A DNA stretch of 64,000 nucleotides from an uncultured Clostridium sp. GTDB lineage: Bacteria > Bacillota > Clostridia > TANB77 > CAG-508. This document shows, in pieces, positions 3,413 to 59,541 of this stretch (the stretch's first letter is position 1; each line of letters begins with the position of its first letter). Location: contig CAMMLJ010000004.1 of the NCBI GenBank assembly GCA_946497695.1, positions 1,793-65,792 of the forward strand, given 5' to 3'. The notes under the pieces were generated by a model. That model did no database searches, had not been told where the DNA came from, and saw only the letters and a program-made list of their open reading frames with translations. The translations under genes and the position numbers were made by a program.

Positions 3413-3439
3413 GGGATTTGGGGACGTTCCTTAAATCCC
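3413..3439 (+). repeat. REP-like hairpin unit (locus A)
   Basis: GGGATTTGGGGACGTTCCTTAAATCCC. Stem GGGATTT/AAATCCC with a 13-nt loop. Starts 5 nt after the ftsZ-like stop codon. Confidence 0.9.
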
Positions 3440-3494
3440 TATTTGGTCACATAAAATAATTAAAGTGCATTAATGATGAATATAGTAAAAAACA

Positions 3495-3538
3495 AAACAC
3501 CTTAATGTTAAAAAAATAACATTTAGAGGTGTTTTTTC
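3495..3538 (+). terminator. intrinsic terminator
   Basis: AAACACCTTAATGTTA / TAACATTTAGAGGTGTTT imperfect long stem followed by a T-run. Confidence 0.65.
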
Positions 3539-3580
3539 TTGTGTAAATATGATAAGATTTAGCATATATGAGGTGAGCAG

Positions 3581-6500
3581 ATGAGTTTAAGATTAATATA
3601 TGGAAAATCTGGATGTGGAAAAAGCGAATATTGTTTTAATGAGATAGCAAAAAATATTAATAAAGAAAAAATATATATGATTGTGCCAAACCAAATGGCT
3701 TTAATGGCAGAAAAAAGATTGATGGAAAAGGCAAATAATTTGGCATTAGTAAATACAGAAGTAATTACATTTAGCAGAATGGCATTTAGAGTAAGAAATG
3801 AGATAGGCGGAGCAAAAAAAACTAATTTAAGTAAAAGTGGTAAAGCAATGCTTCTTTATGATATTTTAAGTAAGTGCAAAGATAATTTGAATTTCTTAGG
3901 GAAGAATGCAGAAAATGTTGATATTATAGGAAATTCAATTACAGAATTTAAAAAACATAGAATAAATATAGAAAACTTAAAAGAAGAGTCTAATACAACT
4001 ACTGATATGTATTTAAAGCTAAAATTAAATGATATGATTACAATGTATGAAGAATTTGAAAAAAGTATACAAGATAAATTTTTAGACGAAAATGATGTAT
4101 TAGATATTTTAAATACACAAATTTTAGAAAGTAATCAGTTTAAAAATGCAATAATTTATATAGATGAATTTGTCGGATTTACAACACAGGAATATGAGAT
4201 TATAGTAAAATTAATGCAACTTGCAAAAGAAGTAAATATTACGATCTGTACAGATAATTTGGTTCAACAAGAAGAGGCAGATAAAGATATTTTTTATGAT
4301 AATAAAAATACAGGAATCAAACTAATTAATTTAGCAAAAGAATATGGAATAGAAATAAAAGATGATGTAAAACTTACCGAGTTATATAGCTTTAAAAATG
4401 AAGAATTAAAGCATTTAGAAGAGAATTTTTATGCAGTACCATATAAAACATATAAAGAAGAGCCAAAAAATATAAAAATGTTTTTAGCAAATAACCAATA
4501 TACAGAGATAGAACATGTTGCTTCAGAAATAGTAAAATTAGTTAGAAACGAAAATTATAGATATAAAGATATATCTGTTATAACTAAAAATTTAAATTTA
4601 TATTCTAGTTTAATAAAAGTTATTTTTGCGGGCTATAATATTCCAGTTTTTATAGATGAAAAAAAGGAATTAAGTGAAAACATTTTAGTAAAATTTTTAA
4701 TAGCAGTATTAGAGATTTGTAATAAAAATTGGTCATATGAAGCTGTATTTAATTATTTAAAAACGGGTTTTGTAAATATAGACAAAGAAGAAATTTTTAA
4801 ACTAGAAAACTATTGTATAAGATGGGGAATAAAAGGTAATAAGTGGTATAAAGAAGATTGGAATTATGTAGGAAAAGATAAATATACAGAAGAGGAACTT
4901 GCAAGACTAAATGAACTAAGAAAAATGATTGTTACACCAATTAGAAAAATGCAAGAAAAGGCTAAGAAAGATAATAGTTTTATAAATTTAACTAAGATTT
5001 TATACGAATTTTTAGAAGAGATGAAGATAGAAGAAGTTATTACTTCTAAAATAGAAAAATTAGAAGAAAAAGGATTTATAGAGATTGCAAATGAATACGA
5101 AAGTAGTTTTAAAGTCCTTATAGAATTATTTGATGAAATCGTATTGGTCTTTGGAGAAGAAAAAACTAATTTTGATAAATATATAAATATATTAAAAATT
5201 GGTTTAAAAAATACAGGACTTGGAAAGATTCCAGCAACACAGGATCAAGTTATTGTTGGGGATGTAAGTAGATCTAGAAGTCACAAAGTTAGAGCAGTAT
5301 TTATAATAGGAATAAATGATGGTGAATTTCCAAGTATCTATAAAGATGAAGGATTCTTTAACGACAAAGATAGGGAATATTTAAAAGCACAGGGCTTTGA
5401 TCTAGCGAATGGAAGTTTAGAAAATTTATATGAAGAAAACTTTAATATATATAAAGCTTTTACAATTGCAGAAGAAAAATTATTCTTATCATATGCGTCA
5501 TCAGACAATGAAGGAAGAACATTAAGACCTTCTATATTAATTACTAAATTAAAGAAAATCTATCCAAAGCTAAAAGAAACAAGTGACATAATTACTCAAG
5601 AAAAAGAAATTATCACTACAAACAATACATTTGATAATTTAATAGAAAAATTAAATGCATATCAAGAAGGAGAAGAGATAGAAGATATTTGGTTTGATGT
5701 GTTAAAATATTATGAGAATAATCCACTATGGAAAGGTAGATTACAAAAAAGCCTAGAAGGAATAAAATATACGAATGTTCCAGAAAAGATTAAACCAGAA
5801 TTTATAAAAAAATTATATGGAGAAACTTTACATACAACAATTTCGAGATTAGAAAGATATAGAAGTTGTCCATTTTCGTTCTACCTAGAATATGGACTAA
5901 AACTAAAAGAGAAGAAATCATTAAAGTTACAACCAATAGATACAGGATCTTTTATGCATGAGGTTATAGATGAATTTTTTGAAGAAGTTGCAGATAAAAA
6001 AATAAGTATAAAAGAACTTGAAAAAGAAGAGATAGAAAAAATAGTAAAACAAATAATAGAAGAAAAGTTAAATTTAAAAGCTAATTATATTTTTAAAAGT
6101 ATTCCAAAATTTATGGTGCTAACAAATAGATTATGCAGGCTAGTAGCTCTTTCTATAGTATATATTGTTCAAGGTTTACAAACTACTGATTTTGAGGTAG
6201 TAGGCAATGAGCTAGAATTTAAAAACGGGAAGGAATATAAGCCAATAGAGATAACAACATCAGATGGAAGAAAAGTAGAGATAACAGGTAAGATAGATAG
6301 AATTGATTTAGCAAAAGATGAAACTGGAAAATATATTAGGATAATAGATTATAAATCATCAGCAAAAGATATAAACTTAAATGAAGTATTAGCTGGTTTA
6401 CAATTGCAATTAATTACATATTTAGACGCAGTATGCGAAGAAAAGGATGTAATACCAGCAGGAGTATTATATTTTGGCTTAACAGAGCCTAAATTAGATA

Positions 6501-6949
6501 AAGTAAAAAATGCTAAAAACATAACAGATGAAGAGGTAGAACAAAAAATAAGAGAACACTTTAGAATGAATGGGTTAGTATTGGCAGAGATGAATGTAAT
6601 TAATATGATGGATAATAACTTAAAAGATGGCGAGAAATCTACTACAATTCCAGTTAAATTAAAGAAAGATGGAAGTATGGATAAAACATCTAAAGTAGTA
6701 TCAAGAAAGGAATTCGAAATACTACAAAAATATGTAAAGAAAACTTTAGGAGATATTTCTAAAGAGATTTTAGATGGAAATATAGACATAAAGCCATATT
6801 ATAATGTTAAAAATAAAAGAAAACCATGTGAATATTGTGTATATGGTTCAATATGTAATTTTAAAAAGGGTTTTTATGGAAATGACTATAATTATATAGA
6901 CAATCTAGAAAAAGATTATATATTAGAATATATGAAACATGAAATTTAG
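3581..6949 (+). CDS. addB: helicase-exonuclease AddAB, subunit AddB
   Basis: 1122 aa. N-terminal Walker A GKSGCGKS. C-terminal nuclease/Fe-S cysteines (RYRSCPFSFY ... KPCEYCVYGSICNF). Confidence 0.9.
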   Translation: MSLRLIYGKSGCGKSEYCFNEIAKNINKEKIYMIVPNQMALMAEKRLMEKANNLALVNTEVITFSRMAFRVRNEIGGAKKTNLSKSGKAMLLYDILSKCKDNLNFLGKNAENVDIIGNSITEFKKHRINIENLKEESNTTTDMYLKLKLNDMITMYEEFEKSIQDKFLDENDVLDILNTQILESNQFKNAIIYIDEFVGFTTQEYEIIVKLMQLAKEVNITICTDNLVQQEEADKDIFYDNKNTGIKLINLAKEYGIEIKDDVKLTELYSFKNEELKHLEENFYAVPYKTYKEEPKNIKMFLANNQYTEIEHVASEIVKLVRNENYRYKDISVITKNLNLYSSLIKVIFAGYNIPVFIDEKKELSENILVKFLIAVLEICNKNWSYEAVFNYLKTGFVNIDKEEIFKLENYCIRWGIKGNKWYKEDWNYVGKDKYTEEELARLNELRKMIVTPIRKMQEKAKKDNSFINLTKILYEFLEEMKIEEVITSKIEKLEEKGFIEIANEYESSFKVLIELFDEIVLVFGEEKTNFDKYINILKIGLKNTGLGKIPATQDQVIVGDVSRSRSHKVRAVFIIGINDGEFPSIYKDEGFFNDKDREYLKAQGFDLANGSLENLYEENFNIYKAFTIAEEKLFLSYASSDNEGRTLRPSILITKLKKIYPKLKETSDIITQEKEIITTNNTFDNLIEKLNAYQEGEEIEDIWFDVLKYYENNPLWKGRLQKSLEGIKYTNVPEKIKPEFIKKLYGETLHTTISRLERYRSCPFSFYLEYGLKLKEKKSLKLQPIDTGSFMHEVIDEFFEEVADKKISIKELEKEEIEKIVKQIIEEKLNLKANYIFKSIPKFMVLTNRLCRLVALSIVYIVQGLQTTDFEVVGNELEFKNGKEYKPIEITTSDGRKVEITGKIDRIDLAKDETGKYIRIIDYKSSAKDINLNEVLAGLQLQLITYLDAVCEEKDVIPAGVLYFGLTEPKLDKVKNAKNITDEEVEQKIREHFRMNGLVLAEMNVINMMDNNLKDGEKSTTIPVKLKKDGSMDKTSKVVSRKEFEILQKYVKKTLGDISKEILDGNIDIKPYYNVKNKRKPCEYCVYGSICNFKKGFYGNDYNYIDNLEKDYILEYMKHEI

Positions 6950-7025
6950 GGACGTGGTTAAAAGGTCATAAGAATACGAAAACTACATTTAAAGCAAGTG
7001 CCTAGAATTTAGAAAGGAGAGACTA

Positions 7026-7805
7026 ATGGATTTAAGTAATGAAAACATAATACATGTCAAAAAAGATGATGTTGAATATTTACAGTTTAGAGAATTACTA
7101 AAATATGCAGATAACTTTCAACATGCATATTCGTTAAAACCATTGCAATTTAGTGATAAGAACGAACAAGCATCAGCAAATTATAAAAAAATATGTAAAG
7201 CATTGGAGATAGATTCAAACCAAATAATTAAGTCAGCACAAAAACATACAGATATCGTTAAAGATATAGAAGAATATACAGATGAAAAATTCGAATTTGT
7301 AGATGGATTTATAACAAATAAGAAGAATATACCATTAGTTACAAAATATGCAGATTGCACACCTATAATTTTATATGATAAAATCAAAAATGTAATAGGA
7401 AATGTACATTCAGGATGGAGAGGAACACTGCAAAGAATAAGTGTAAAAGCAGCTAAATTAATGATGGAAAAATATGATTGCAATCCAGCAGATATAATAG
7501 TGTGTATAGGACCATGCATAAAGCAATGTCATTTTCAAGTAGAAGCGGACTTTATAGCTAAATTCAAGCAAGAATTTGGAAATATAGATAAATATTATAA
7601 CCTAGGAGAAGTCATAGAAGGAAAACAAAAATATTATTTTGACACGACAAATTTAATAATAGATTATTTAAGCAAAATAGGAATAAAGAGAGAAAATATA
7701 TTTGACAGCGATATTTGTAGTGTTTGCAATGCAGATAGTATGTCTTCATACAGGGCAGAAAAAGATAAAGCAGATAGAAATATGAATATCGTAATGCTTA
7801 AATAG
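7026..7805 (+). CDS. pgeF: peptidoglycan editing factor PgeF / YfiH (laccase-domain, DUF152) family
   Basis: 259 aa; HSGWRGT motif and Cys/His ligand pattern (YADCTPI, IGPCIKQCHFQV). Confidence 0.8.
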   Translation: MDLSNENIIHVKKDDVEYLQFRELLKYADNFQHAYSLKPLQFSDKNEQASANYKKICKALEIDSNQIIKSAQKHTDIVKDIEEYTDEKFEFVDGFITNKKNIPLVTKYADCTPIILYDKIKNVIGNVHSGWRGTLQRISVKAAKLMMEKYDCNPADIIVCIGPCIKQCHFQVEADFIAKFKQEFGNIDKYYNLGEVIEGKQKYYFDTTNLIIDYLSKIGIKRENIFDSDICSVCNADSMSSYRAEKDKADRNMNIVMLK

Positions 7806-7862
7806 GGATTATAGGAATTTGGGGACGTTCCTTTAGGGATTTGGGGACATTCCTTAAATCCC
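7803..7862 (+). repeat. REP-like cluster (locus C): partial unit plus two tandem forward units, the last one hairpin-type
   Basis: TAGGGATT.., GGAATTTGGGGACGTTCC (7814-7831), GGGATTTGGGGACATTCCTTAAATCCC (7836-7862). The pgeF stop TAG (7803-7805) is the TAG of the first TAGGGATT. Confidence 0.9.
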
Positions 7863-7969
7863 GATTTACTATAAAATAAGATGAATTTTAGGCATAGGAG
7901 TAAAAAGTTGTTTAAAATAAAATTTGAATTTTAAGCTTTGTTCCTAAAGTTCAGAAGGGAGAAAAACAC

Positions 7970-10122: not shown

Positions 10123-10228
10123 GAGGGAAAAAAGGAACGTCCCCAAATCCCGAGAAAGGCCACAATCCCGAGAAAATCCAAAATACCGCGGAAGGCCCGA
10201 ATCCAGAGGAAGGACAAAAAATCCCGAT
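10123..10228 (-). repeat. REP-like array (locus D): one intact reverse unit plus about four decaying tandem units
   Basis: GAGGGAAAAAAGGAACGTCCCCAAATCCCGA followed by GAAAGGCCACAATCCCGA / GAAAATCCAAAATACCGCG / GAAGGCCCGAATCCAGA / GGAAGGACAAAAAATCCCGA (17-20 nt period). Confidence 0.8.
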
Positions 10229-18574: not shown

Positions 18575-18591
18575 GAAATCTCCTCCAATCC

Positions 18592-19596
18592 CTAAATTTC
18601 TATGCTAACAGCATGTGCAATTCCAGGAATACTTTCACCTTGTTGTGTAGATGTAGAGTTCATTAAAGCTCCTGTAGCAATTAATAATATCTTTTTATAC
18701 TTTTTAGTTTGCAGCATATTAAATAAATACCCAGAGAATACTGTACCACAACAAGCACAACCACTTCCACCAGCATGTGTGTCTTGGGTTGCTTTATCAA
18801 AAATTAAAACTCCACAATCATTGTAGTTAGCTTTTATATTAAAACCTTTTGTTTGTGCAAGTTCAATTAAAATTTCTTTACCAACATGTCCAAGATCACC
18901 AGTTATAATTGCATCATAATAACTTGGATTTCTGCCAGTATCACTAAAGTGTGTAATTAAAGTATCTAAAGCAGCAGGTGCCATTGCAGCTCCCATATTA
19001 TTACCATCTTTAATTCCCATGTCTATAATTCTACCAGGAGTAAAATGAGTTACAAAAGGACCTGTGCCAGAAGAAGATAAAATTGCAGCACCAGAACCAG
19101 TAACGGTCCATTGGGAAGACTGAGGTCTTTGGTTTCCTAATTCTAGTGGAAATCTAAACTGTTTTTCTGCACTACAAAAGTGACTAGAAGCAGCACATAT
19201 AACATTATCAGCAGCACCACCATCAATAAATACAGAGCCTAAGCCTAAACCTTCAACAAAAGTAGAACAAGCACCAAATATACCTATAAATGGAATATTA
19301 GAATCTCGTAATCCAAAACTAGAAGAAATACATTGATTTAATAAATCACCAGCAAAACAATAATCTATACTAGAAATTGGAAGATTAGATTTTTTTACTG
19401 CAGAATAAACAGTTTCCTTTAATATTTTACTTTCGGCTTTTTCCCAAGTCTTTTCTCCCCAGAATTCATCTTCTAAGCATTTATCAAAATATTTAGCAAG
19501 AGGTCCCTCAGCTTCTTTTGGACCAACAATACATGCTGTGTCTAAAATAGTAGGAGGCTTAGTAAATTTAATAGTTTGTTTTCCTAATTTCTCCAA
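18592..19596 (-). CDS. spoVAD: stage V sporulation protein AD
   Basis: 334 aa thiolase-fold protein between spoVAC and spoVAE; typical SpoVAD N-terminus (GKQTIKF..PPTI..TACIVGPKE). Confidence 0.9.
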   Translation of the reverse strand: MEKLGKQTIKFTKPPTILDTACIVGPKEAEGPLAKYFDKCLEDEFWGEKTWEKAESKILKETVYSAVKKSNLPISSIDYCFAGDLLNQCISSSFGLRDSNIPFIGIFGACSTFVEGLGLGSVFIDGGAADNVICAASSHFCSAEKQFRFPLELGNQRPQSSQWTVTGSGAAILSSSGTGPFVTHFTPGRIIDMGIKDGNNMGAAMAPAALDTLITHFSDTGRNPSYYDAIITGDLGHVGKEILIELAQTKGFNIKANYNDCGVLIFDKATQDTHAGGSGCACCGTVFSGYLFNMLQTKKYKKILLIATGALMNSTSTQQGESIPGIAHAVSIEI

Positions 19597-20357: not shown

Positions 20358-20391
20358 AGTTGGATGATATAATATAAAAAAGGATTTTTAA

Positions 20392-20469
20392 GGGATTTGG
20401 GACGTTCCTTTTTTCCCTGCCCGGGATTTGAGGAACGTCCCCAAATCCCGAGGAACGTCCCCAAATCCC
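20392..20469. repeat. REP-like cluster (locus E): one forward unit facing two reverse units
   Basis: GGGATTTGGGACGTTCCTTTTTTCCCT (20392-20418), then GGGATTTGAGGAACGTCCCCAAATCCC (20423-20449) and GGAACGTCCCCAAATCCC (20452-20469). Confidence 0.9.
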
Positions 20470-20485
20470 GATGAAAGGATTGGAA

Positions 20486-29353: not shown

Positions 29354-29382
29354 TAGGGATTTGGGGACGTTCTTTAAATCCC
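29354..29382 (+). repeat. REP-like hairpin unit (locus F, left inverted repeat of the RAYT gene)
   Basis: TAGGGATTTGGGGACGTTCTTTAAATCCC. A degenerate reverse partner follows (ATTTTAAAGAACGTTCCGTTAAAT, about 29388-29412). Confidence 0.9.
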
Positions 29383-29542
29383 TAAATTATTTTAAAGAAC
29401 GTTCCGTTAAATTAAGTATTTTGATATCTTCAAAATTTTTTAATCAATTTTTTCTTATAATTAAAATTAATTTTTTTATTATTATCTAATTTATTATTAA
29501 TTCCAAAATTTTATCCAAATTAGTAAAATAAAAGGAGGGCTG

Positions 29543-30313
29543 ATGTCTAGAATTGCCAGAAAAAATATAGTATCTAAATTTGTCCATATTGTTGCGAAAG
29601 GTATAAAGAATGAATTTATTTTTTATAAACAAGAATACAAAGAAAAGTATACATCACTATTAAACAAATCTATTAAAGAGCTAGAAGGGATAGATTTAAT
29701 AGCATATTGTATTATGGATAATCATGCACATTTATTAATACATACTGAGAAAATAAATAATATAGAAAAGCTTATGCGAAAAATAAATACAGCATATGCT
29801 ATATTTTATAACTTACAAGAAGAGAGAGCTGGATATGTTTTTTTAAATAGATATCATTCTGAAATTATAGAAAATGGGATTCATTTGCTTTCTTGCATAA
29901 AATATATCCATGAAAATCCAGTGAAAGCTGGAATAGTAGAAAAAGAGCAGTTTTATCAATATTCTTCATGCAGAGCCTTTTTAGAGGACAAGATGAGTAA
30001 TGATATTTTATGTTCAGTTTTTGGAGAGAATTTTAAATATGCATCTACCGATGTAGATAAAAAAATAGAATATCATTTTATTGATGAAGATGAAAGAGTG
30101 GAAAAAATTGAAAGAAAAGGTATAGAAATAATTATTGAAGAATTTTGCAATAAGTATAATACATCTATAGCTGAAATTAGAAAATCTAATAGCCTAATTA
30201 TAGAGTTTAAAAGCTTTTTAATGGTGAAATATAAAATAAGTAATAAAAATATTTGTGCTATATTAGGAATAGGTAAAAATAGAATTTCGCAAATAGAGAA
30301 AAAACTAAAATAA
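29543..30313 (+). CDS. REP-associated tyrosine transposase-like protein (IS200-like Y1/HUH fold) with C-terminal HTH
   Basis: 256 aa. HUH motif in YCIMDNHAHLLI, catalytic Tyr context IKYIHENPVKAGIV, C-terminal HTH-like NKNICAILGIGKNRISQIEKK. RBS AAAGGAGGG. Confidence 0.8.
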   Translation: MSRIARKNIVSKFVHIVAKGIKNEFIFYKQEYKEKYTSLLNKSIKELEGIDLIAYCIMDNHAHLLIHTEKINNIEKLMRKINTAYAIFYNLQEERAGYVFLNRYHSEIIENGIHLLSCIKYIHENPVKAGIVEKEQFYQYSSCRAFLEDKMSNDILCSVFGENFKYASTDVDKKIEYHFIDEDERVEKIERKGIEIIIEEFCNKYNTSIAEIRKSNSLIIEFKSFLMVKYKISNKNICAILGIGKNRISQIEKKLK

Positions 30314-30353
30314 GAAATAATTAAGTATTTATAATAAAAATAGTAGTAAAAGC

Positions 30354-30382
30354 GGGATTTAAAGAACGTCCCCAAATCCCTA
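30354..30382 (-). repeat. REP-like hairpin unit (locus G, right inverted repeat of the RAYT gene)
   Basis: GGGATTTAAAGAACGTCCCCAAATCCCTA. Confidence 0.9.
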
Positions 30383-30408: not shown

Positions 30409-30735
30409 ATGAAGATAACTTGGCTAACTAGAAGAAAAAGTTTCGAAGAGATTAAGCCAAATAGAAAGGTAAGATATGAACAAATATTAGAAAGTTTATG
30501 TTTAGGAAATAAAACTGCTAAAGAAATTGCGGTTGAACTATATAGGCAAAAATTAACCAATACAGATGAACGTAATACAACTGCTCCAAGATTAACAGAA
30601 TTAGAAAAAATGGGTCTTGTAGAAGCAACTGCTAAGAAAACTTGTAAATATACAGGAAAAACAGTCACAGTTTACAAAATAACAAAATTGGGTTTTGAAA
30701 TTATAAATAATAGAGAAATGCATAAAAAGAGTTAA
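30409..30735 (+). CDS. small winged-helix DNA-binding protein (hypothetical)
   Basis: 108 aa after AAAGGAG; EILESL..NKTAKEIAVEL...TTAPRLTELEKMGLVEA...GKTVTVYKIT is a wHTH pattern. Confidence 0.55.
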   Translation: MKITWLTRRKSFEEIKPNRKVRYEQILESLCLGNKTAKEIAVELYRQKLTNTDERNTTAPRLTELEKMGLVEATAKKTCKYTGKTVTVYKITKLGFEIINNREMHKKS

Positions 30736-30818: not shown

Positions 30819-30849
30819 GAGGGAAAAAAGGAACGTCCCTAAATCCCTA
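30819..30849 (-). repeat. REP-like unit (locus H)
   Basis: GAGGGAAAAAAGGAACGTCCCTAAATCCCTA; the terminal CTA is the TAG stop of the beta-subunit gene. Confidence 0.9.
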
Positions 30850-33301: not shown

Positions 33302-33388
33302 TTTTAAACTCCTTTCTTTTGAACTTTAGGGATAGGGCTTAAAGTTCATTCGTATACATAATATAGAACTCTAAGTGAAATTTTATAC

Positions 33389-33440
33389 AGGGAAAAAAGG
33401 AACGTCCCTAAATCCCTAGCAAAATTGCTAAAAATCCCTA
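33389..33440 (-). repeat. REP-like unit plus partial unit (locus I), inside the oxidoreductase operon
   Basis: AGGGAAAAAAGGAACGTCCCTAAATCCCTA, then palindrome TAGCAAAATTGCTA, then AAAATCCCTA whose CTA is the TAG stop of the gamma gene. Confidence 0.9.
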
Positions 33441-34019
33441 TTGTATTTCTACGACTCTTTGTAATGCTATCTCTAATGCTTTCATATTTCCACCTATAAC
33501 TTCTGGCTTCTTTGCAAATTTGTGTTTAAAAGAACCTTCCATATCTTGTAAGAATTCTTTTTCAGGAATAATTCCTGTTACTTTAACAACCGCAGCAAGC
33601 ATAGGAGTATTTGGAAAATACTTTCCTAAAGCTTCGATAGAAACAGTTCTTGCATCTATTGTATATATGTGTCCTTTATATCCTTTTAATAATCTTTTTA
33701 GTGTTTCACCATCTTTTGTAGTATTAATTATAATTGCTCCAGATTCCTTTAAACCTGCAGTAACATCTACAGAATGTAATAAAGTGTCATCAACAACTAC
33801 TACATAATCTGGATTGTGAATATTACAATGTATTCTAATAGGTGTTGTACTAATTCTGTTATAAGCTGTGATTGGTGCACCCATTCTTTCAGCACCATAT
33901 TCAGGAAATCCTTGGATATATTTTCCTGTGTTAAATGCTGCATCAGCTAATAATAAAGAAGCTGTTTTTGCACCTTGACCACCTCTACCATGCCATCTAA
34001 TTTCAATTAAATCGTTCAT
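33438..34019 (-). CDS. 2-oxoacid:ferredoxin oxidoreductase, gamma subunit
   Basis: 193 aa; IRWHGRGGQGAKTASLLLA typical gamma N-terminus. Confidence 0.9.
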   Translation of the reverse strand: MNDLIEIRWHGRGGQGAKTASLLLADAAFNTGKYIQGFPEYGAERMGAPITAYNRISTTPIRIHCNIHNPDYVVVVDDTLLHSVDVTAGLKESGAIIINTTKDGETLKRLLKGYKGHIYTIDARTVSIEALGKYFPNTPMLAAVVKVTGIIPEKEFLQDMEGSFKHKFAKKPEVIGGNMKALEIALQRVVEIQ

Positions 34020-40275: not shown

Positions 40276-40348
40276 TAAAAAAGGCTATTTTCTTTATCTC
40301 GAGCTAGTATTTAAAACAAGATATATACTAATAATGGGAGTGAAGAAA

Positions 40349-40699
40349 ATGAACATTAAAAGAGGCGACATGTTTTATGCAGATTTAAGTCCTGTTGTTG
40401 GCTCAGAACAAGGAGGAATTAGACCAGTTTTAATAATACAAAATGATTTGGGAAATAAATATAGTCCAACTGTAATTGCAGCTGCAATTACATCTCAAAA
40501 AACTAAAAATAAGTTGCCTACACATATAGAAATTAATTCAAAAGACTTTGGATTAAAATCAGATTCTATAGTACTTGCAGAACAAATTAGAACAATAGAC
40601 AAAAGTAGATTAAAAGAGAGAATAGGACATATAGACAATGATGAAATTATAGGAAAGATAAATAATGCGCTTGGAGTTAGTTTTGGTTTAGGCGAATAA
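40349..40699 (+). CDS. mazF: type II toxin MazF/EndoA (PemK-family endoribonuclease)
   Basis: [34 protein letters not shown]...LPTHIEI...[12 protein letters not shown], very close to EndoA/NdoA. Start at MNIKRGD. Confidence 0.9.
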
Positions 40700-40706
40700 T
40701 TAAGAT

Positions 40707-40757
40707 AGAACGTTCTGATTTTTCTTTAAAGGAGAAATTCAGAACGTTCTTTTTTTT
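40707..40757 (+). terminator. strong intrinsic terminator after mazF
   Basis: AGAACGTTCTGATTTTTC / GAGAAATTCAGAACGTTCT stem followed by T7. Confidence 0.85.
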
Positions 40758-40778
40758 GAATTGTAATTTGAATAAAAT

Positions 40779-40841
40779 AGGGAAAAGAGGAACGTCCCCA
40801 AATCCCGAAAAGGGAAAAAAAGGAACGTTCCCAAATCCCTA
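40779..40841 (-). repeat. REP-like cluster (locus J): two tandem reverse units
   Basis: AGGGAAAAGAGGAACGTCCCCAAATCCC and AGGGAAAAAAAGGAACGTTCCCAAATCCCTA; the terminal CTA is the TAG stop of the HD-GYP gene. Confidence 0.9.
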
Positions 40842-41777
40842 AACTTGTAATTTTTTTATTATTTTAATTTCTTCATATAATTTGTTTACAATTTCTTTTC
40901 TGGTTAAATGTGCTGTTTGATATTCATGATATATTTTATGAATATTTTCAAAATTTTCACCTTCTTGAAATAGCATTTCCATTCCTTCTTTATAATAATT
41001 CTTCTTTTTTTCGGAATGAGCTTTATCCATTTTTTCTTCATATTCTAAGATCTGTTCGATTCTTTTTATTTGCTCTTTTAGATAGTCAACATATCCTGTA
41101 ACACAACTAATTTCGTAGTAGGTATCATCAATAACAACTTTAAATAAAGCTTTTACTACTTTTTTATTAAGTTTTCCAAGTTTTACCCCTTGTGCTGCAT
41201 TATCTAAAGCTGCTACTTTTACATTTGGCTCAGTATCTTTAATTAATTCTTTTAAAGTGTCTGATATATGAATATGAGTTTTATATTGTCTTTTTGTAAC
41301 TAGAGCATCATAATCATCTGCAACTTTTATAATTTGATCTTCATATGGAATCAAATTACCTACCAAGCCTTCCGGATATCCTGTACCATCTAATGTTTCA
41401 TGATGGTATTTTGGTCCTAATGCATATGGTCTTAATCTAATATCATCCATACACATTTTATAGCCAATAAGAGTATGTGTTTTCATGATATCAAATTCTT
41501 CAGCTGTTAATCTGTCTGGTTTATTTAAAATTTTTGAAGGAATAAACATTTTACCAATATCATGAAGATATGCACATATAGTACAATAAGCAGTAAAATT
41601 CTTATCACAACGTAAATATTCGCATAACCTACAGGTGATACTTGCAACATTTTCGCTATGAATTCTAGTAAATGGATCTAAACTATCTAGCATAGTTAAT
41701 TGATATCTCATAGTGACATCTAAATTATAAGATTTTAAAGTTGTTTTATCATAAAAATCAAATTTTTGCTCAAACAT
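40839..41777 (-). CDS. HD-GYP domain protein (putative c-di-GMP phosphodiesterase), paralog 1
   Basis: 312 aa; HSENVA, YLHDIGKMFIP, HHETLDGTGYPEGL. Confidence 0.8.
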   Translation of the reverse strand: MFEQKFDFYDKTTLKSYNLDVTMRYQLTMLDSLDPFTRIHSENVASITCRLCEYLRCDKNFTAYCTICAYLHDIGKMFIPSKILNKPDRLTAEEFDIMKTHTLIGYKMCMDDIRLRPYALGPKYHHETLDGTGYPEGLVGNLIPYEDQIIKVADDYDALVTKRQYKTHIHISDTLKELIKDTEPNVKVAALDNAAQGVKLGKLNKKVVKALFKVVIDDTYYEISCVTGYVDYLKEQIKRIEQILEYEEKMDKAHSEKKKNYYKEGMEMLFQEGENFENIHKIYHEYQTAHLTRKEIVNKLYEEIKIIKKLQV

Positions 41778-42749: not shown

Positions 42750-42914
42750 TTTAATACTCCTTTGTAAATAGTATTACTTTTTGCTATGTAAATAATTCAA
42801 TATTTTTTTCAAAATTATAATATCATTAAATGAAATAAAGTTCAATATATTGTTGATTTATATCGATTTTTAATATATTATAAAGAAGTACAAAAAGATA
42901 AAAAGGTGATTATA

Positions 42915-45900
42915 ATGTATTTAAAAAGACTAGAGTTACAAGGATTTAAATCCTTTGCAGATAAAACAGTTTTAGAATTTATGCCAGGAATTACAACAGT
43001 TATAGGACCAAATGGTTCTGGTAAAAGTAATATATCTGATGCAATTCGTTGGGTATTAGGTGAACAAAGTATAAAATCATTAAGAGGTGCAAAATCAGAA
43101 GATATTATTTTTGCAGGAACACAAAACAGAAAATCTTTAGGTTTTGCAGAAGCATCTTTAGTTTTTAATAATGATGATGGTAAATTACCAATAGAATATG
43201 CAGAAGTTACAGTAACAAGAAGAATATATAGAACAGGTGAGACAGGTTATTTTATAAACAAAACTCCTTGTAGATTAAAAGATATTCTAGAATTATTTAT
43301 GGATACTGGTATTGGTAAAGATGGATATTCAATTATTGGCCAAGGAAAAATAGACGAAATATTAAGTAATAAATCAGAAGATAGAAGACATATTTTTGAA
43401 GAAGCAGCAGGAATTGTAAAATATCGTAGCAGAAAAGAAGATTCAGAAAAGAAACTAGAAAGAGCGAAATTAAATTTATTAAGAATTAATGATATCTTAT
43501 CAGAAATAGAAAATAATATGGAACCTTTAAAAATACAGTCAGAAAAAGCTAAAAAGTTTTTAAGCTTAAGAGAGGAATTAAAGGGAATAGAAGTTGGATT
43601 ATTCTTATATAATATCGATTTATATAAAGAAAGATTAGAAAAAATAACTGCTGATGAAGATATTATGAATTCAACTTATGAAAATGAACAAAAAAGCCAA
43701 GAAGAAAAGAACGAGAAAAAGAACAAATTAAAAGTAGAGATAAATAATTTAATAGAAGAAATAGAATCTATGCAAAATATTGGTTTTGAAAGTTCTAATC
43801 AGATAGAGAAAATAAATTCTAATATAAATGTATCAGAAGAAAGAATTAATAATATACAAGAAAATAATAAAAGATATGAAACAGAAATCGCAGAGATAAA
43901 TGAGAAAATAGTAGAATTAGAAGAAGAAAAGAAACAAAAAATAGCTAAAAAAGAAAATCTATTTAACAATAAAGAAAAATTCGAAAAAGAATTAAAAGAA
44001 AAGGAAGAAGAATTAAACCAATTAACTGCAAAATTATCTGATAAGCAATTAGAAATAGAAAAGAAAAAGAAGACAATCGAAGAAAATACAGATAAAAAAT
44101 ACGAAGTACAAAATGATATAAATACACAAGATGTAACTACAGATTCTGTAGAAAAAAATATAAAAGCTAAAACAGAAGAATTAGAACTTACAATTTCTGA
44201 ATTAGATCAGTCAAGATTAAAGAAAAGTGAAATTGAGCAAAACTTTATCGAGATAGAGTCAAAAAGAAATAAATTAAAAAATGATCTAAGTGAGATAGAG
44301 AATAAAAAAATAGAGGCTGATAATAAAATAAAAAGTTTTGAAACAGAAATTAATAATTTAGGCCAAGAAATAAGAATAAAAGAAGCCAGATTAAAATTTC
44401 TAGAAGAAACTGAAAAAGAAAAAGAAGGTTATACCAAAAGTGTTAAAGCTTTACTTAAATCAGCAGATATGAATCCAGAACTAAAAAAAGGATTACATGA
44501 TGTTATTGCAAACTTATTAAATGTAAAAAAAGAATATGAGGTTGCAATAGAAATGTCATTAGGTGCAAGTCTTCAAAATGTTGTTACAGAAACAGAACAA
44601 GAAGCTAAGATACTAATTGAATATTTAAGAAAAAATAATTTAGGAAGAGTAACATTTTTACCTATTTCAGCTGTTAAAGGAAAAAAATTAGACAGAGCAA
44701 ACTTAAATATTAAAGGTGTAATTGGAATTGCTTCTGATTTGGTACAATATGATAAAAAATATGATGGAATATTTAACAATCTATTAGGAAGAACAGTTAT
44801 TGTAGATGATATGGAAGCTGGAATTGCAGTTGCTAAAAAGAATAATTATGCATTTAGAGTTGTAACATTAAAAGGTGATATAATTAATTCTTCTGGAGCA
44901 ATGACAGGTGGGTCAGTACAAACTAAAACTGTAAATATTCTAGGAAGAAGTAGAGAAATAGAGGCATTAAAAGAAGAATTAAACAAATTAAATTCAAGCT
45001 TAAAAAATAAAGAAAAAGAGAAAGAAGAATATTTAGCTAGCATAGAAGAATTATTAGAGACAATAGAACACTTAGAAAATAATTTACAAGAGATAGATAT
45101 AGAATATGCAACACAAAAACAAAAAGTGGAATTAATCTCAGAAAATGTTGAGAAATTAACAGTTAGAATGGACAAAACAAAACAAGAAATAGAAAATCTA
45201 AATAATCAGAAAAAAGACATTGCAGAAAATAAGGAAAAATTAAAAGAAGATTTATCAAAGTTAGAAAAAGAAATACAAACTTTAAATTTAGAAGTAGAAG
45301 AATTTGTTAAATTAAATAAAGATGATCAAACATATATTGATAATTTAAATATGGATATAACGAATTTAAAGATATCTGTATCATCTTTTGAAGAAAGCGA
45401 AATGTCAATAGATGAAATGACAGAAAGAATTAATAATGATATCCAAAATAATAAAAACAGTATAAAAGCTAAAAATGAACAAATAGAGCAAAATAAACAG
45501 GAAGAAGAAAACTTAAGAGCACAAATAGAAGAATTTAAAGCAAAAATTATAGAGATAAAAGAAAATGTAAAAAATAGTGGTTCAAAAATAGAAGAATTAA
45601 AGAAAAATAAAAATGAAAAGAACACAGAATTAGAAAAAATAGAAAAAGAAATAGAAGAACAATTTGGAAGATTGCAAGATTTAAAAGAGCAATTAGTAAA
45701 AATTGACCTAAAGAAAAATAAAACCTCTCAAGACCTAGAAGATGTAATTAATAGAATGTGGGAAGAGTATGAATTAACACCTAATAATGCAGAAGGATTT
45801 GTAAAAACAACAGATCCTGCGAAGACACAAAAAGAAGTTAATTATTTAAGAAATCAAATAAGAGATTTAGGAAGTATAAATATTGATTCTATTAAAGAAT

Positions 45901-46460
45901 ATCAAACATTAAAAGAAAGATATGACTTTATGTGTGAGCAAAGACTTGACTTAGAGAACTCTATGGCAAAGCTTAGAAATGTTATTTCAGAAATGATAAC
46001 TATTATGAAAGCACAATTTAAAGAGAAATTTAAACTTATCAATAAAAACTTTGATGAAGTATTTAAAGAACTATTCGGTGGTGGAAAAGCAGAATTAATC
46101 TTAGAAAATGAAGATGATGTTTTAAATTGCGGAATAGATATTAGGGTACAACCACCAGGAAAGAAACTCCAAAACATGACTTTACTATCTGGAGGGGAGA
46201 AGGCATTTACAGCTATTGCAATTCTATTTGCAATATTAAAAATAAATCCTGCACCATTCTGTGTATTAGATGAAATTGAAGCTGCACTAGATGATGTTAA
46301 TGTTAACAGATATGCAGAATACTTAAAGAAATTTGCAAAAGATACACAATTCTTAGTAATTACACATAGAAAGGGTACTATGGAAGCAGCAGATACAGTA
46401 TATGGAATAACAATGGAAGAAAACGGAATTAGTAAACTACTTTCTATGAAATTAAAATAG
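42915..46460 (+). CDS. smc: chromosome segregation protein SMC
   Basis: MYLKRLELQGFKSFADKT, Walker A GPNGSGKSN, long coiled coils with hinge, signature LSGGEKA, Walker B FCVLDEIEAALD. Confidence 0.95.
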   Translation: MYLKRLELQGFKSFADKTVLEFMPGITTVIGPNGSGKSNISDAIRWVLGEQSIKSLRGAKSEDIIFAGTQNRKSLGFAEASLVFNNDDGKLPIEYAEVTVTRRIYRTGETGYFINKTPCRLKDILELFMDTGIGKDGYSIIGQGKIDEILSNKSEDRRHIFEEAAGIVKYRSRKEDSEKKLERAKLNLLRINDILSEIENNMEPLKIQSEKAKKFLSLREELKGIEVGLFLYNIDLYKERLEKITADEDIMNSTYENEQKSQEEKNEKKNKLKVEINNLIEEIESMQNIGFESSNQIEKINSNINVSEERINNIQENNKRYETEIAEINEKIVELEEEKKQKIAKKENLFNNKEKFEKELKEKEEELNQLTAKLSDKQLEIEKKKKTIEENTDKKYEVQNDINTQDVTTDSVEKNIKAKTEELELTISELDQSRLKKSEIEQNFIEIESKRNKLKNDLSEIENKKIEADNKIKSFETEINNLGQEIRIKEARLKFLEETEKEKEGYTKSVKALLKSADMNPELKKGLHDVIANLLNVKKEYEVAIEMSLGASLQNVVTETEQEAKILIEYLRKNNLGRVTFLPISAVKGKKLDRANLNIKGVIGIASDLVQYDKKYDGIFNNLLGRTVIVDDMEAGIAVAKKNNYAFRVVTLKGDIINSSGAMTGGSVQTKTVNILGRSREIEALKEELNKLNSSLKNKEKEKEEYLASIEELLETIEHLENNLQEIDIEYATQKQKVELISENVEKLTVRMDKTKQEIENLNNQKKDIAENKEKLKEDLSKLEKEIQTLNLEVEEFVKLNKDDQTYIDNLNMDITNLKISVSSFEESEMSIDEMTERINNDIQNNKNSIKAKNEQIEQNKQEEENLRAQIEEFKAKIIEIKENVKNSGSKIEELKKNKNEKNTELEKIEKEIEEQFGRLQDLKEQLVKIDLKKNKTSQDLEDVINRMWEEYELTPNNAEGFVKTTDPAKTQKEVNYLRNQIRDLGSINIDSIKEYQTLKERYDFMCEQRLDLENSMAKLRNVISEMITIMKAQFKEKFKLINKNFDEVFKELFGGGKAELILENEDDVLNCGIDIRVQPPGKKLQNMTLLSGGEKAFTAIAILFAILKINPAPFCVLDEIEAALDDVNVNRYAEYLKKFAKDTQFLVITHRKGTMEAADTVYGITMEENGISKLLSMKLK

Positions 46461-46463: not shown

Positions 46464-46552
46464 TTAGGGATATGGGGACATTCCTAGAAAATTGGGACAT
46501 TCCCAGAAAATTGGGACATTCCCAGGGATTTGGGGACGTTCCTTTTTTCCCT
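46464..46552 (+). repeat. REP-like tandem array (locus K): four forward units, 19-20 nt period
   Basis: TAGGGATATGGGGACATTCC / TAGAAAATTGGGACATTCC / CAGAAAATTGGGACATTCC / CAGGGATTTGGGGACGTTCCTTTTTTCCCTC. Confidence 0.9.
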
Positions 46553-46568
46553 CTTGTATGAACAATAT

Positions 46569-46595
46569 AGCCAACTAGATTTTATCTAGTTGGCT
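46569..46595. terminator. 12-bp perfect hairpin between convergent smc and ytaF
   Basis: AGCCAACTAGAT / ATCTAGTTGGCT, loop TTT; no clean T-run. Confidence 0.45.
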
Positions 46596-46635
46596 AAGAA
46601 ATCTCTATTAAAAATATGGATTTTTAGAAACGTCC

Positions 46636-52374: not shown

Positions 52375-52445
52375 GGATTTGGATAGGGATTTGGGACATT
52401 CCTTTTTTCCCTAATAGGGATTTGGGGACGTTCCTTAAATCCCTA
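52375..52445 (+). repeat. REP-like cluster (locus L): two forward units (T-tract type, then hairpin type)
   Basis: GGGATTTGGGACATTCCTTTTTTCCCT and TAGGGATTTGGGGACGTTCCTTAAATCCCTA. Confidence 0.9.
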
Positions 52446-54446: not shown

Positions 54447-54448
54447 GA

Positions 54449-54481
54449 TAGGGATTTAGGGACGTTCCTCTAAAATCCCTA
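54449..54481 (+). repeat. REP-like hairpin unit (locus M)
   Basis: TAGGGATTTAGGGACGTTCCTCTAAAATCCCTA followed by T6. Confidence 0.9.
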
Positions 54482-57486: not shown

Positions 57487-57517
57487 TAGGGATTTAAGGA
57501 ACGTCCCCCAATCCCTA
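57487..57517 (-). repeat. REP-like hairpin unit (locus N)
   Basis: TAGGGATTTAAGGAACGTCCCCCAATCCCTA, 5 nt from the serS stop codon. Confidence 0.9.
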
Positions 57518-57521
57518 TTTT

Positions 57522-58805
57522 CTATTTCACTGTGATTTTTTCCAAACCACCCATATATGGTATTAATACTTCTGGAATAATTACACTTCCATCTGGTTGA
57601 TAGTTATTTTCTATAATAGAAATTAGCATACGTGGTGGAGCTACAACAGTGTTGTTTAAAGTATGTGCAAAATAATTTCCTTTTTCACCTTTTATTCTAA
57701 TTCCTAATCTACGAGCTTGTGCATCTGTTAAGTTAGAACAGCTTCCAACTTCAAAATATTTCTTTTGTCTTGGACTCCAAGCTTCTACATCACAAGATTT
57801 AGCTTTTAAGTCTGCTAAGTCACCACTACAACATTCTAAGGTTCTTACTGGAATATTCATACTTCTAAAGAATTCTACTGTATATGACCACATTTTATTA
57901 TACCAATCCCAAGAATCTTCTGGTTCGCATACAACAATCATTTCTTGTTTTTCAAATTGATGAATTCTATATACACCACGTTCTTCTAATCCATGTGCAC
58001 CTTTTTCTTTCCTAAAACAAGGAGAATATGATGTCATTGTATATGGCATATCTTCTTTCTTTAAAATTTGACCTTTAAATTTACCTATCATAGAATGTTC
58101 ACTTGTACCAATTAAGTATAAATCTTCACCTTCGATTTTGTACATCATTGCATCCATTTCTTCAAAGCTCATAACACCTGTTACTACATCGCTTCTTATC
58201 ATATAAGGTGGGATACAATAAGTAAAACCTTTATTAATCATAAAATCTCTTGCATATGTTAAAACAGCAGAATGTAATCTTGCAACATCTCCCATTAGAT
58301 AATAGAAACCTTGTCCTGCAACACGTCTAGCACTATCTAAATCTAATCCACCTAAAGCTTCTAAAATTTCACCATGGAATGGAATTTCATAAGCTGGAAC
58401 TATAGGTTCACCGAATCTTTCGATTTCTACATTTTCGCTATCATCTTTTCCAATTGGAACAGATTCATGCATAATATTTGGTATTTTCATCATTCTAGCT
58501 TTAATTTCTTCTGCATATTTGTTTTCTAATACTTCATTTTCTTCTAGTTTATTATTGATTTCTTGAACTTCTGCTTTAATCTTTTCTGCTTCATCTTTTT
58601 GACCATTTCTCATTAAATTTCCAATTTCTGCACTTAGTGTTTTTCTTCTATTTCTTAATTCATCACCAGCAAGTGTAGCTTCTCTAGATTTTTTATCTAA
58701 AGCTATAACTTCATCAACTAAAACTAGTTTTTCATCTTGAAATTTTTTCTTTATATTTTCCTTAACAATGTCAGGATTTTCTCTTAAAAATTTAATATCT
58801 ATCAT
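57522..58805 (-). CDS. serS: serine--tRNA ligase
   Basis: 427 aa; N-terminal coiled-coil arm, class II motifs (GTSEH, FRKE, YQPDGSVIIPEVL). Confidence 0.95.
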   Translation of the reverse strand: MIDIKFLRENPDIVKENIKKKFQDEKLVLVDEVIALDKKSREATLAGDELRNRRKTLSAEIGNLMRNGQKDEAEKIKAEVQEINNKLEENEVLENKYAEEIKARMMKIPNIMHESVPIGKDDSENVEIERFGEPIVPAYEIPFHGEILEALGGLDLDSARRVAGQGFYYLMGDVARLHSAVLTYARDFMINKGFTYCIPPYMIRSDVVTGVMSFEEMDAMMYKIEGEDLYLIGTSEHSMIGKFKGQILKKEDMPYTMTSYSPCFRKEKGAHGLEERGVYRIHQFEKQEMIVVCEPEDSWDWYNKMWSYTVEFFRSMNIPVRTLECCSGDLADLKAKSCDVEAWSPRQKKYFEVGSCSNLTDAQARRLGIRIKGEKGNYFAHTLNNTVVAPPRMLISIIENNYQPDGSVIIPEVLIPYMGGLEKITVK

Positions 58806-58874: not shown

Positions 58875-59111
58875 TTAATCTATTTTTTCAAACCTATGTT
58901 TTTGTCCAGTAATGTTGTCTGGTCTTTCAGGAATTTCTTCTAAAAACATTTTTTCAGGTCTAACCCAAATATAATTTCCATCTTCTCTTGGATATAAAGG
59001 TTTATATACAACCATTCTTTCTTTAGTTTCCGAATCACAAGCCACATTTTCTACAAAATAATAATTGCCTTTAAAATGACGATAAACTTTTCCAATTTCT
59101 ACATGGTTCAT
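58875..59111 (-). CDS. DUF1653-family protein
   Basis: 78 aa; YRHFKGNYYFV...ETKERMVVYKPLY...WVRPEKMF. Confidence 0.7.
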   Translation of the reverse strand: MNHVEIGKVYRHFKGNYYFVENVACDSETKERMVVYKPLYPREDGNYIWVRPEKMFLEEIPERPDNITGQKHRFEKID

Positions 59112-59180
59112 AAAAATACCTCCATTACATAAAATATATTCTAATAAATTGGACTAAAACAAGTACAATTTAATTTAGAC

Positions 59181-59420
59181 AAACAAAAATCGTCCTTATA
59201 TAAATATATAAGGACGAATATAATCCGCGGTGCCACCTTAAGTTATTATAAAAATAATACACTCAATTAGTAGGGTAACCGCCTAACTTACGGTTTAGTT
59301 TTCACTAAAAACATCTAAGAGTAGATTCACATATAAATTTTATTTACTTACACCACCCGTAAACTCTCTTAAAAAATTAAATATGTTACTATTCTCTTAT
59401 CAAACGTTTATATTAATATG
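59181..59420 (-). ncRNA. T-box leader (candidate Ser/UCU specifier) controlling DUF1653-serS
   Basis: Minus strand shows stem I AGAGA/GGTGGTG elements and GAA-TCT-A in the specifier position (UCU = 59323-59325). T-box AACTTAAGGTGGCACCGCGG (59225-59244). Terminator TCGTCCTTATATA/TATATAAGGACGA plus T-run. Confidence 0.75.
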
Positions 59421-59426
59421 TAACAC

Positions 59427-59455
59427 ATTTTAACATAATATGTATAAATATTCAA
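59427..59455 (-). promoter_or_regulatory. sigma-A type promoter of the T-box leader
   Basis: Minus strand reads TTGAAT, 17 nt, TG-extended TAAAAT. Confidence 0.55.
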
Positions 59456-59492
59456 TAAAAATTGTAAAAATTATTATATGAATTTGATAAGA

Positions 59493-59541
59493 GGGTTTTG
59501 GAACGTGCCATAGGGATTTGGGGACGTTGTTTAAATCCCTA
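59493..59541 (+). repeat. REP-like cluster (locus O): degenerate unit plus hairpin unit
   Basis: GGGTTTTGGAACGTGCC then TAGGGATTTGGGGACGTTGTTTAAATCCCTA. Confidence 0.85.

Follow-up and report, generated by a model that had tools for sequence, protein, structure and literature searches.

The partnership of repetitive extragenic palindromic (REP) sequences with REP-associated tyrosine transposases (RAYTs) is the leading case in which a domesticated transposase coexists with a population of short repeats in bacterial genomes, and detailed work on it comes nearly all from the Proteobacteria. This report concerns a dense family of intergenic repeats in 64,000 nucleotides of DNA from an uncultured Clostridium sp. 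(GenBank assembly GCA_946497695.1, contig CAMMLJ010000004.1, positions 1,793 to 65,792). This whole stretch is called the window here, and all window positions are counted from its first nucleotide. The repeats are very probably REP-type elements of a REP/RAYT system with a single-copy Y1 HuH gene that lies within the window. This reading is favoured because the family is dispersed and intergenic, the hairpin it forms is strand-asymmetric, the catalytic residues of the Y1 protein are invariant, the arrangement of the gene between inverted units (the REPtron) is conserved and syntenic, and a GGGAC apex is fixed in the flanking hairpins.

The REPtrons of the Proteobacteria, such as the REP sequences of Escherichia coli with TnpA-REP/RayT (structure 4ER8) and the doublets called REPINs in Pseudomonas, share several features with the window. 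These are the dense, short, extragenic imperfect palindromes, their enrichment between convergent or co-directional genes and downstream of coding regions, and a Y1 HuH gene, apparently single-copy and vertically inherited here, with inverted flanking units and the class-2 motif Y---NP. The host differs, being here a Clostridia lineage of 28% GC, and there is no GT[AG]G foot as in the E. coli REP, a conserved GGGAC at the hairpin apex being found instead. The system is a variant within the continuum that runs from REP/RAYT to terminal inverted repeats (TIRs) and TIRYTs, and not a canonical GTAG-REP, REPIN or bacterial interspersed mosaic element (BIME).

In the classification of Quentin et al. 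(2018; PMC6006769) the signature of class-2 TnpA-REP is Y---NP, and the proteins of subclass 2.1 are long, with a median of 238 aa, and bear NHVH or NH[YF]H, Y[IV]HLNP, SS, and a C-terminal helix-turn-helix (HTH). This subclass corresponds to Group 1 of Bertels, and the TIRYTs of Di Nocera et al. are probably its equivalent too (PMC6006769). The TIRYT genes lie between inverted repeats sharing GGGGWSAS, and some of the TIR families show self-complementarity, moderate repetition and clustering (Di Nocera et al. 2013; PMC3733652). Group 1 RAYTs occur in Clostridia, and very abundant flanking 16-mers were found only with Groups 2 and 3 (Bertels et al. 2017; PMC5581495).

A literature search, made in an incomplete library, found no paper on such a system in Clostridia or Bacillota. 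This agrees with an earlier reading of the same DNA from its letters alone (the sequence-only reading), which knew of no characterised elements of this kind in low-GC Clostridia. Intergenic, structured, high-copy repeats of low-GC Firmicute hosts include BOX, RUP, and SPRITE in Streptococcus pneumoniae, STAR in Staphylococcus aureus, and bcr in Bacillus cereus, which are longer (about 100-200 bp) and are modular or resemble miniature inverted-repeat transposable elements (MITEs). To our knowledge none of them has been tied to a flanked Y1 RAYT gene, and they are set apart here by description.

The repeat family and its unit

The window was searched with the 18-mer GGGATTTGGGGACGTTCC, allowing up to 3 mismatches, with 100 dinucleotide-preserving shuffles as control. 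There are 18 matches (7 exact, 9 with one mismatch, and 2 with two), 9 on each strand, where the shuffled sequences gave none in 100 and the expectation is 0. Searching for the 10-nt core GGGACGTTCC, with no more than 1 mismatch, gave 23 hits, which correspond to 22 distinct units once a palindromic double hit is removed. All of these units are within the 14 intergenic loci that the sequence-only reading had listed, about one locus per 4 kb, and each is outside real coding sequence; the loci overlap only spurious antisense open reading frames (ORFs), over-extended starts, or a stop codon. The dense, dispersed, and strictly intergenic family described in that reading is therefore real, and it is high-copy, dispersed, and extragenic, as are REPs. 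The window has a GC content of about 28%, and its GC skew is positive over nearly the whole length. A replication motif of the Chi or KOPS kind was rejected, since the skew is uniformly positive but the units are 9 on + and 9 on -, following gene direction.

The repeat unit is an imperfect palindrome of 31 nt, TAGGGATTTGGGGACGTTCCTTAAATCCCTA, usually with TTT next, and its layout is T[A/C]GGGATTT-GGGGACGTTCC-TT-AAATCCC[T/G]A. It falls within the 20-40 nt imperfect palindromes that define REPs. Two architectures had been proposed, and both are present. The H type, in its G-rich (sense) strand, forms an unbroken stem of 14 bp, two of its pairs being G·U/G·T, which is closed by the triloop CGU; this fold replaces the 9-bp stem and 13-nt loop first suggested. 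In the T type, which has the same length, the AAA of the right arm becomes TTT (TTTTTTCCCT), so that the outer stem has 6 bp and a 3x3 U/U internal loop separates it from the upper stem, which is as in the H type. The consensus RNA folds at -18.2 kcal/mol in the sense orientation versus -12.7 kcal/mol in the antisense orientation, and actual copies fold at -16.2 and -18.1 kcal/mol (z = -3.7 and -4.1). Within the family, the outermost pair of the stem shows weak covariation (A-T 48, C-G 15, C-T 17, A-G 10).

The core is a near-perfect 10-bp palindrome, GGRACGTYCC, centred on ACGT. There is no 5' GT[AG]G (or CGTC) foot of REPs; the GGG is preceded by T (66%) and then A or C (52 and 29%), and G is present at -3 in only 15%. 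Following the H-type stem, T is found at positions +3 to +6 past the CCC in 88, 76, 67, and 54% of cases, versus an intergenic background of 37%, and there is no mirror A-run upstream of the stem in the flanks of the H-type copies. Where units are in tandem, the arm and core are repeated head-to-tail with a period of 19-21 nt and one right arm closes the array. The singlets, inverted group, and tandem arrays noted previously were all seen, with direct arrays in the window at 46465-46553, 40778-40841, 7812-7864, and 52383-52445 and one mixed-orientation group at 20389-20471. A CRISPR-like array was rejected, there being no regularly spaced unique spacers and the 19-21-nt units being contiguous.

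A RAYT-like Y1 HuH gene

The gene at 29543-30313 (+), which encodes 256 aa, was overlooked in the sequence-only reading, although it lies within the interval that reading covered. Query sequences for E. coli RayT and IS608 TnpA were compared by phmmer with the six-frame ORFs, and the RayT query gave a single weak hit (E=0.017), to this ORF. The protein matches Pfam PF01797 (Y1_Tnp) with E=1.4e-8 and 35.4 bits, versus a gathering cutoff of 23. Among NCBIfam models the top match is NF047646, "REP-associated tyrosine transposase" (REP_Tyr_transpos), with E=1.6e-16 and 60.5 bits, the IS200/IS605 model reaching only E=0.024.

Thirty homologs with 35-89% identity were aligned, and N60-H61-x-H63, Y121-I-H-x-N-P126, and S141-S142 are invariant; in the window protein these are NHAH (60-63), YIHENP (121-126), and SS (141-142). 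The C-terminal HTH, ILGIGKNRI, is conserved across the alignment, and homologs have Pfam hits to HTH_24, HTH_22, and HTH_8. A single-sequence phmmer search with the Y1 protein found nothing in the PDB, and a profile of the 30 homologs found one convincing match there, 4ER8 (E. coli TnpA-REP), in the region of the catalytic Tyr. The AlphaFold2 model of the protein (pLDDT 82.3) has 4er8_A as its top Foldseek match, with E=4.7e-7 and a TM score of 0.70 on the target, above all of the ISDra2, IS608, and IS200 TnpA structures. The HuH motif, the Y---NP, and a fold nearer to TnpA-REP than to IS200 TnpA are the marks of a class 2 TnpA-Y1, and the protein has all three.

Compared with the RAYTs of the Proteobacteria, such as E. 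coli TnpA-REP, the protein is about 90 aa longer, with the HTH tail, and the WQ/E/H/R residues of guide recognition are replaced, VFLNRYHSE aligning here to IWQPRFWEH. The loss of the GTAG-recognition residues is consistent with the absence of a GTAG foot from the repeats. The features that it shares with the TIRYTs and subclass 2.1 are the length of the Y1 protein, an HuH motif like NH[VYF]H, Y[IV]HxNP, SS, and the C-terminal HTH; judged by motifs and architecture, and not by phylogeny, it appears to fit subclass 2.1. It is most likely this protein that spreads the repeats.

Conservation of the REPtron

The gene is flanked by inverted H-type units that both carry the core variant GGGACGTTCT. 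The left unit (29354-29384, +) folds at -16.2 kcal/mol (z = -3.7) and is identical in six other samples, and the right unit (30352-30382, -) is inverted relative to it. Inverted units around a RAYT-like gene are a REPtron arrangement, and this layout recurs in nine other lineages or species (L086, L089, L031, L042, L107, L109, L112, L111, and L113, where L numbers denote the comparison loci), with two units on each side of the gene in L042. Where the protein is identical, as it is in many samples spanning 52 index blocks, the flanking units are always identical as well.

The chromosomal position of the gene, between PSP1/ferredoxin and a 2-oxoacid:ferredoxin oxidoreductase operon, is shared by homologs with 99, 55, 42, and 42% identity. 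In the last three of these (L107, L109, and L112, respectively) the hairpin family is likewise inverted at the flanks. There are only two copies, those at the flanks, in the 20 kb examined for L109, four copies in L107, and four REP-like copies in L112, including the flanking pair; the proliferation of the repeat is therefore lineage-specific. The more distant homologs of L111 and L113 are at other genomic sites and have inverted flanking hairpins with unrelated arms, in which the GGGAC apex is kept. That of L111 is TGAGACAGTT-GGGACAGTCC-TAATTTGTCTCA and that of L113, where no other copies are present in the 13 kb examined, is CACCTTCT-GGGGACACTCCCC-AAAAGGTG; they fold at -16.9 and -19.9 kcal/mol, respectively, with z about -5. 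In a gapless comparison of 12 flanking hairpins the GGGAC is invariant, and the stems are kept paired by compensatory changes, such as G-C, C-G, and G-T at position ±12. The apex is GGGGACGT in the window and GGGGACAC in L113, and fits the GGGGWS of the GGGGWSAS motif of the TIRtrons. What differs from subclass 2.1 is that the flanking repeats are bona fide 31-nt hairpins which have multiplied to a density of about one locus per 4 kb.

The presence of a transposase-family gene between inverted copies could also mean that the units are MITEs or the terminal repeats of a conventional insertion sequence (IS), of the DDE or IS200 type. The units are only 31 nt, with no TIR beyond the hairpin itself and no evident target-site duplication. 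The profile models place the protein with the RAYTs and not with IS200 (1.6e-16 versus 0.024), and the ends of IS200/IS605 elements are same-strand hairpins, not an inverted pair. The Y1 gene has one locus in the 865 kb examined (about 10 genomes), in which no second Y1 gene, transposase-like or otherwise, was found, and it is syntenic across 42-99% identity, although in L111 and L113 it is elsewhere. An ordinary multi-copy IS would not behave in this way, and this explanation is scarcely credible.

By analogy with the cleavage and rejoining of the hairpin by E. coli TnpA-REP (PMC6006769; PMC8266576), HuH/Tyr cleavage and rejoining may have seeded the copies and may still remodel them. The Y1 protein would bind the single-stranded DNA hairpin by recognising its GGGAC apex, and not a GTAG foot.

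Some further observations concern the surroundings of the REPtron. Immediately outside the right REP is a 108-aa protein (30409-30735, +) with weak winged-helix hits (PadR, Replic_Relax, TrmB-like; E 0.003-0.08). There is a 104-aa gene at the matching place in L107, and none in L109 or L112. In L122 and L123, where the RAYT is identical, the upstream genes differ from those in L119-L121 and the window, being a GH25/LysM lysin-like gene, HATPase_c, DUF4325, and two small ORFs. The break is not at the left REP but about 55 nt ahead of it, within the 3' end of the ferredoxin gene. Many RAYT homologs in the protein database are on contigs of 0.9-1.1 kb, close to the REP-to-REP distance of 1029 bp in the window, which suggests that assemblies break at the flanking repeats.

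Distribution in other genomes

An outside search for the exact 18-mer GGGATTTGGGGACGTTCC, with one genome per species, found at least 105 stretches of 8 kb. Among the 105 listed, 102 come from about a dozen uncultured gut metagenome-assembled genomes (MAGs) of one clade, labelled Clostridium sp. CAG:354, UMGS1570, HGM13682, and similar, so that the motif is by no means confined to the window. The other three (L021, L040, and L090) are single occurrences in the GC-rich DNA of Alcaligenaceae, Syntrophales, and Chlorobaculum. The window is 88-97% identical to several of the clade loci and is identical to none of them. Together, the window and the 102 clade loci listed contain at least 236 units.

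The motif is also far from being as common in coding sequence: simple ORF calls take up 87% of the DNA, yet 228 of 247 raw core hits in the stretches listed are outside them. The 19 hits inside ORFs include 6 in the unrelated loci L021, L040, and L090, and most of the others are at ORF edges. The possibility of a DNA-uptake sequence was set aside, as there are no intragenic copies and the RAYT explains the family.

The units of the window and the loci listed form 129 singlets, 36 direct tandems, and 11 groups of mixed orientation, and adjacent pairs of units are direct in 49 cases versus inverted in 11. The organisation that had been likened to REP, BIME, and REPIN elements is thus upheld as regards REP, given the RAYT gene and its inverted flanking pair, and not as regards BIME or REPIN, for which inverted doublets (REPIN) or mosaics of alternating orientation with defined linkers (BIME) would be expected where singlets and direct tandems predominate here.

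Among viral contigs there is one exact match to the 18-mer, in L114 at 795-812 (IMG/VR contig IMGVR_UViG_3300045988_175401). Its local context is that of the bacterial locus L022, and L114 is probably host or prophage-adjacent DNA. An exact 27-mer, GGGGGGGATTTGGGGACGTTCCTGAAA, which includes the core GGGGACGTTCC, is common to L040 (~1526-1552; Syntrophales MAG) and L090 (~2815-2841; Chlorobaculum sp.); both genomes have about 50% GC, and the surrounding sequences are unrelated. L101 begins, at the end of its contig, with a tandem series of at least 5 half units of 21 nt (1-110).

Placement relative to genes

Convergent intergenic regions contain 28% of the units in 10% of the intergenic length, and divergent regions contain 10.5% of the units in 19% of that length. 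Of the 59 units in convergent regions, 52 have the sense orientation relative to the nearest gene end. Co-directional regions have 82 sense units versus 52 antisense, and the sense units there have a median position 17-31 nt past the upstream stop codon.

This placement bears on whether the units might be duplex DNA sites, on GGRACGTYCC, for a dimeric protein acting in chromosome organisation or regulation, either through the C-terminal HTH of the Y1 protein or as a nucleoid or regulatory factor. Such sites would suit the near-perfect palindrome of the core around ACGT, the HTH tail on the Y1 protein and its homologs, and a tandem period of 20-21 bp, equal to two helical turns. The placement, however, tracks gene orientation and stop codons and not promoters, with divergent regions depleted, and the G·U strand asymmetry would be meaningless for a duplex site. 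Taken together, this makes sites of that kind very improbable.

The units resemble intrinsic terminators in having a hairpin and T-run directly downstream of genes, and at some sites relatives have canonical terminators in their place. A terminator scan flags 4 of the 8 H units in the window, and under a looser test 27 of the 36 convergent ends that bear a REP have a unit scoring as a hairpin with a T tail. Empty alleles, where presence/absence polymorphism between relatives was looked for, are few, and at each of the three sites a canonical terminator hairpin and T-run is in place of the repeat. Compared with 54449-54481 of the window, L105 has an unrelated canonical terminator hairpin at the exact spot, with the T-tract common to both. 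A second site, in the comparison of L056 with L023, likewise has a canonical terminator instead of the repeat. At the 40778 site there is one bidirectional terminator and no repeat in L115 and L118, although the neighbouring PemK-like protein that they encode is identical to that of the window. The sense copies may be terminator-like or 3'-protective RNA hairpins.

As a rival explanation, the repeat could be primarily a standard terminator or 3' untranslated region (UTR) hairpin, selected by the host and both spread and homogenised by recombination or gene conversion, with the Y1 gene merely between two copies and taking no part. Units just past stop codons with the T-run next, the exchange with canonical terminators at orthologous sites, and variation that is mostly local expansion and contraction would all be expected of it. 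In each of the lineages examined, however, the inverted pair still flanks the Y1 gene, even where there are no other copies (20 kb of L109; 13 kb of L113, with different arms). That the arms change and the GGGAC apex stays fixed points to recognition by the encoded protein. One sequence is found at hundreds of sites, with an AT-rich stem base and a short, interrupted T-run, and many copies are antisense or upstream of genes, all of which is unlike intrinsic terminators; the 52 antisense units and those in divergent promoter regions are a misfit for a pure terminator. A host terminator with a bystander Y1 gene is for these reasons improbable. Within the REP/RAYT reading, most established copies may be transcribed as mRNA 3' ends, given their position after stop codons, their stronger-hairpin orientation, and the short U-run, and a terminator-like or 3'-protective role would account for the retention of sites across species.

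Variation at orthologous sites

The loci compared were chosen for a perfect 18-mer, and the sample is hence biased to occupied sites. The site is occupied in both genomes in 87 of 94 orthologous comparisons, and the number of units differs in 33 of the 94 pairs. The subtype can also change, the window having T type at 40778-40841 and L057 having H type. Slippage or recombination between the 20-21-nt arm and core units would make arrays grow and shrink in place. In L056, between spoVAC-like and spoVAD-like genes, there is a 2.6-kb insertion (4618-7241, compared with window 18586-18592) that codes for 659-aa and 158-aa proteins with no Pfam match and has REP units at both borders (4628 and 7197).

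Several of the results weigh against a REP/RAYT system as the explanation for the family. The score of the Y1 protein to NF047646, 60.5, is below the equivalog cutoff of 80. The subclass 2.1 proteins, which it resembles, were reported without REP-like sequences nearby (PMC6006769). Insertions at new sites are rare in the ortholog comparisons, in a sample biased to occupied sites; most change is in local copy number (33 of the 94 pairs), for which a transposase is unnecessary. Units are conserved only slightly better than their flanks (84.7% versus 78.9% in 16 pairs), and the T-type subtype is unexplained. We know of no demonstration in vivo of RAYT-driven REP dissemination, even in E. coli. 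As for the gene-end role, a separate terminator is also present at 20 of 36 REP-bearing convergent ends, compared with 66 of 90 REP-less ends, and therefore many units sit in 3' UTRs and do not replace the terminator. The T-run after the unit is short and interrupted (TATTT), and the 52 antisense units of the co-directional regions leave the terminator role only partly supported.

Other repeat loci in the window

Most of the remaining loci are next to stop codons. The H-type unit at 3411-3441 (+), one of those flagged by the terminator scan, is 3 nt past the stop of the + gene 2461-3408, and its orthologs in L026 and L074 hold 3 units. At 7812-7864 (+) is a direct doublet, with an arm and core half unit and then an H unit, which abuts the stop of the gene 7026-7805; the number of units varies among the orthologs in L074, L026, and L017. 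T-type units are directly past the stops of the - genes 30847-31800 (30819-30849, -, sense) and 33438-34019 (33388-33440, -, with extra AAATCCC arm copies), and an H unit (57487-57517, -, sense) is directly past that of the - gene 57522-58805. At 54449-54481 (+) an H unit (-18.1 kcal/mol, z = -4.1) is followed by TTTTTTATTT.

Two direct T-type units (40778-40841, -) are past the stop of the - gene 40839-41777, and the + gene convergent on them has its own canonical terminator at 40706-40762. This site is hypervariable, with an H unit in L057, L035, L116, and L117 and at least 5 tandem units in L101. The array at 46465-46553 (+), of three 19-nt half units in direct orientation and a closing T-type unit, is between the stop of the gene 42906-46460 and a separate hairpin at 46568-46596; the orthologs in L079 and L035 have 2 units.

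Other loci are upstream of genes. The T-type unit at 10123-10153 is followed by a decayed tract, arm-like and with an 18-nt period, up to the start of the gene at 10240 (10123-10219 in all, -); a shorter version is present in the ortholog in L017. The mixed group in a divergent intergenic region at 20389-20471 consists of a T unit (20389-20419, +), an H unit (20421-20451, -), and a half unit (20441-20471, -), and its + and - units are able to pair as an 18-bp REPIN-like hairpin. In the ortholog L023 the core that corresponds to 20421-20451 has the opposite orientation between identical arms. A direct doublet at 52383-52445 (+), with a T unit and then an H unit, is also in a divergent intergenic region. 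At 59489-59541 a decayed unit (59489-59519, -) and an H unit (59511-59541, +) are upstream of a T-box leader and the gene at 59617, this doublet being just beyond the promoter region of the leader. The T-box leader (59207-59412, -; Rfam RF00230, 110.5 bits) is upstream of the - gene 57522-58805. It was the only Rfam match in the window at gathering thresholds, with nothing at the repeats, and a search for tRNA and tmRNA genes found none.

A second hairpin family has different arms (TGAACTTTA...TAAAGTTCA) and is present in the window at 33320-33348 and 7925-7953, in L046 (~667-700), and in L001 (~2530-2565). In some of its copies there is an apex of like kind, TTGAACTTTAGGGACGGTCCTTAAAGTTCA, and the family is perhaps an older or parallel subfamily of REPs, recognised via the GGGAC apex. 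The palindrome GAACGTTC is also found in non-REP contexts, in the arms of the long canonical terminator 40706-40762 past the gene 40334-40699 and, as AAAGAACGTTCC, at 29390-29405, just downstream of the left REPtron unit.

Implications

The system is a dense and well-delimited example of REP/RAYT in low-GC Clostridia. It is quite possible, though we lean slightly against it, that it represents a distinct class of REP, in which an HTH-bearing RAYT of the subclass 2.1/TIRYT kind reads GGGAC at the top of the hairpin, the gene is fixed at one site across a broad clade of gut Clostridia, and one sub-lineage has hundreds of copies serving as gene-end terminators. If this were true, the 'TIRs' of the TIRtrons would be REP hairpins in disguise, and the partnership of REP and RAYT would reach the Bacillota with another recognition logic.

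In this gut lineage the repeats cause breaks in metagenome assemblies, and they could be markers for strain typing. The presence of an apex motif with a type of RAYT that has been thought to lack REPs means that the rules by which the largest uncharacterised TnpA-Y1 subclass recognises its DNA can be tested directly. The natural series of lineages, from two flanking hairpins up to hundreds of copies, bears on how and why REPs proliferate, and the replacement of terminators at some sites on whether REPs are parasites or co-opted gene-end signals.

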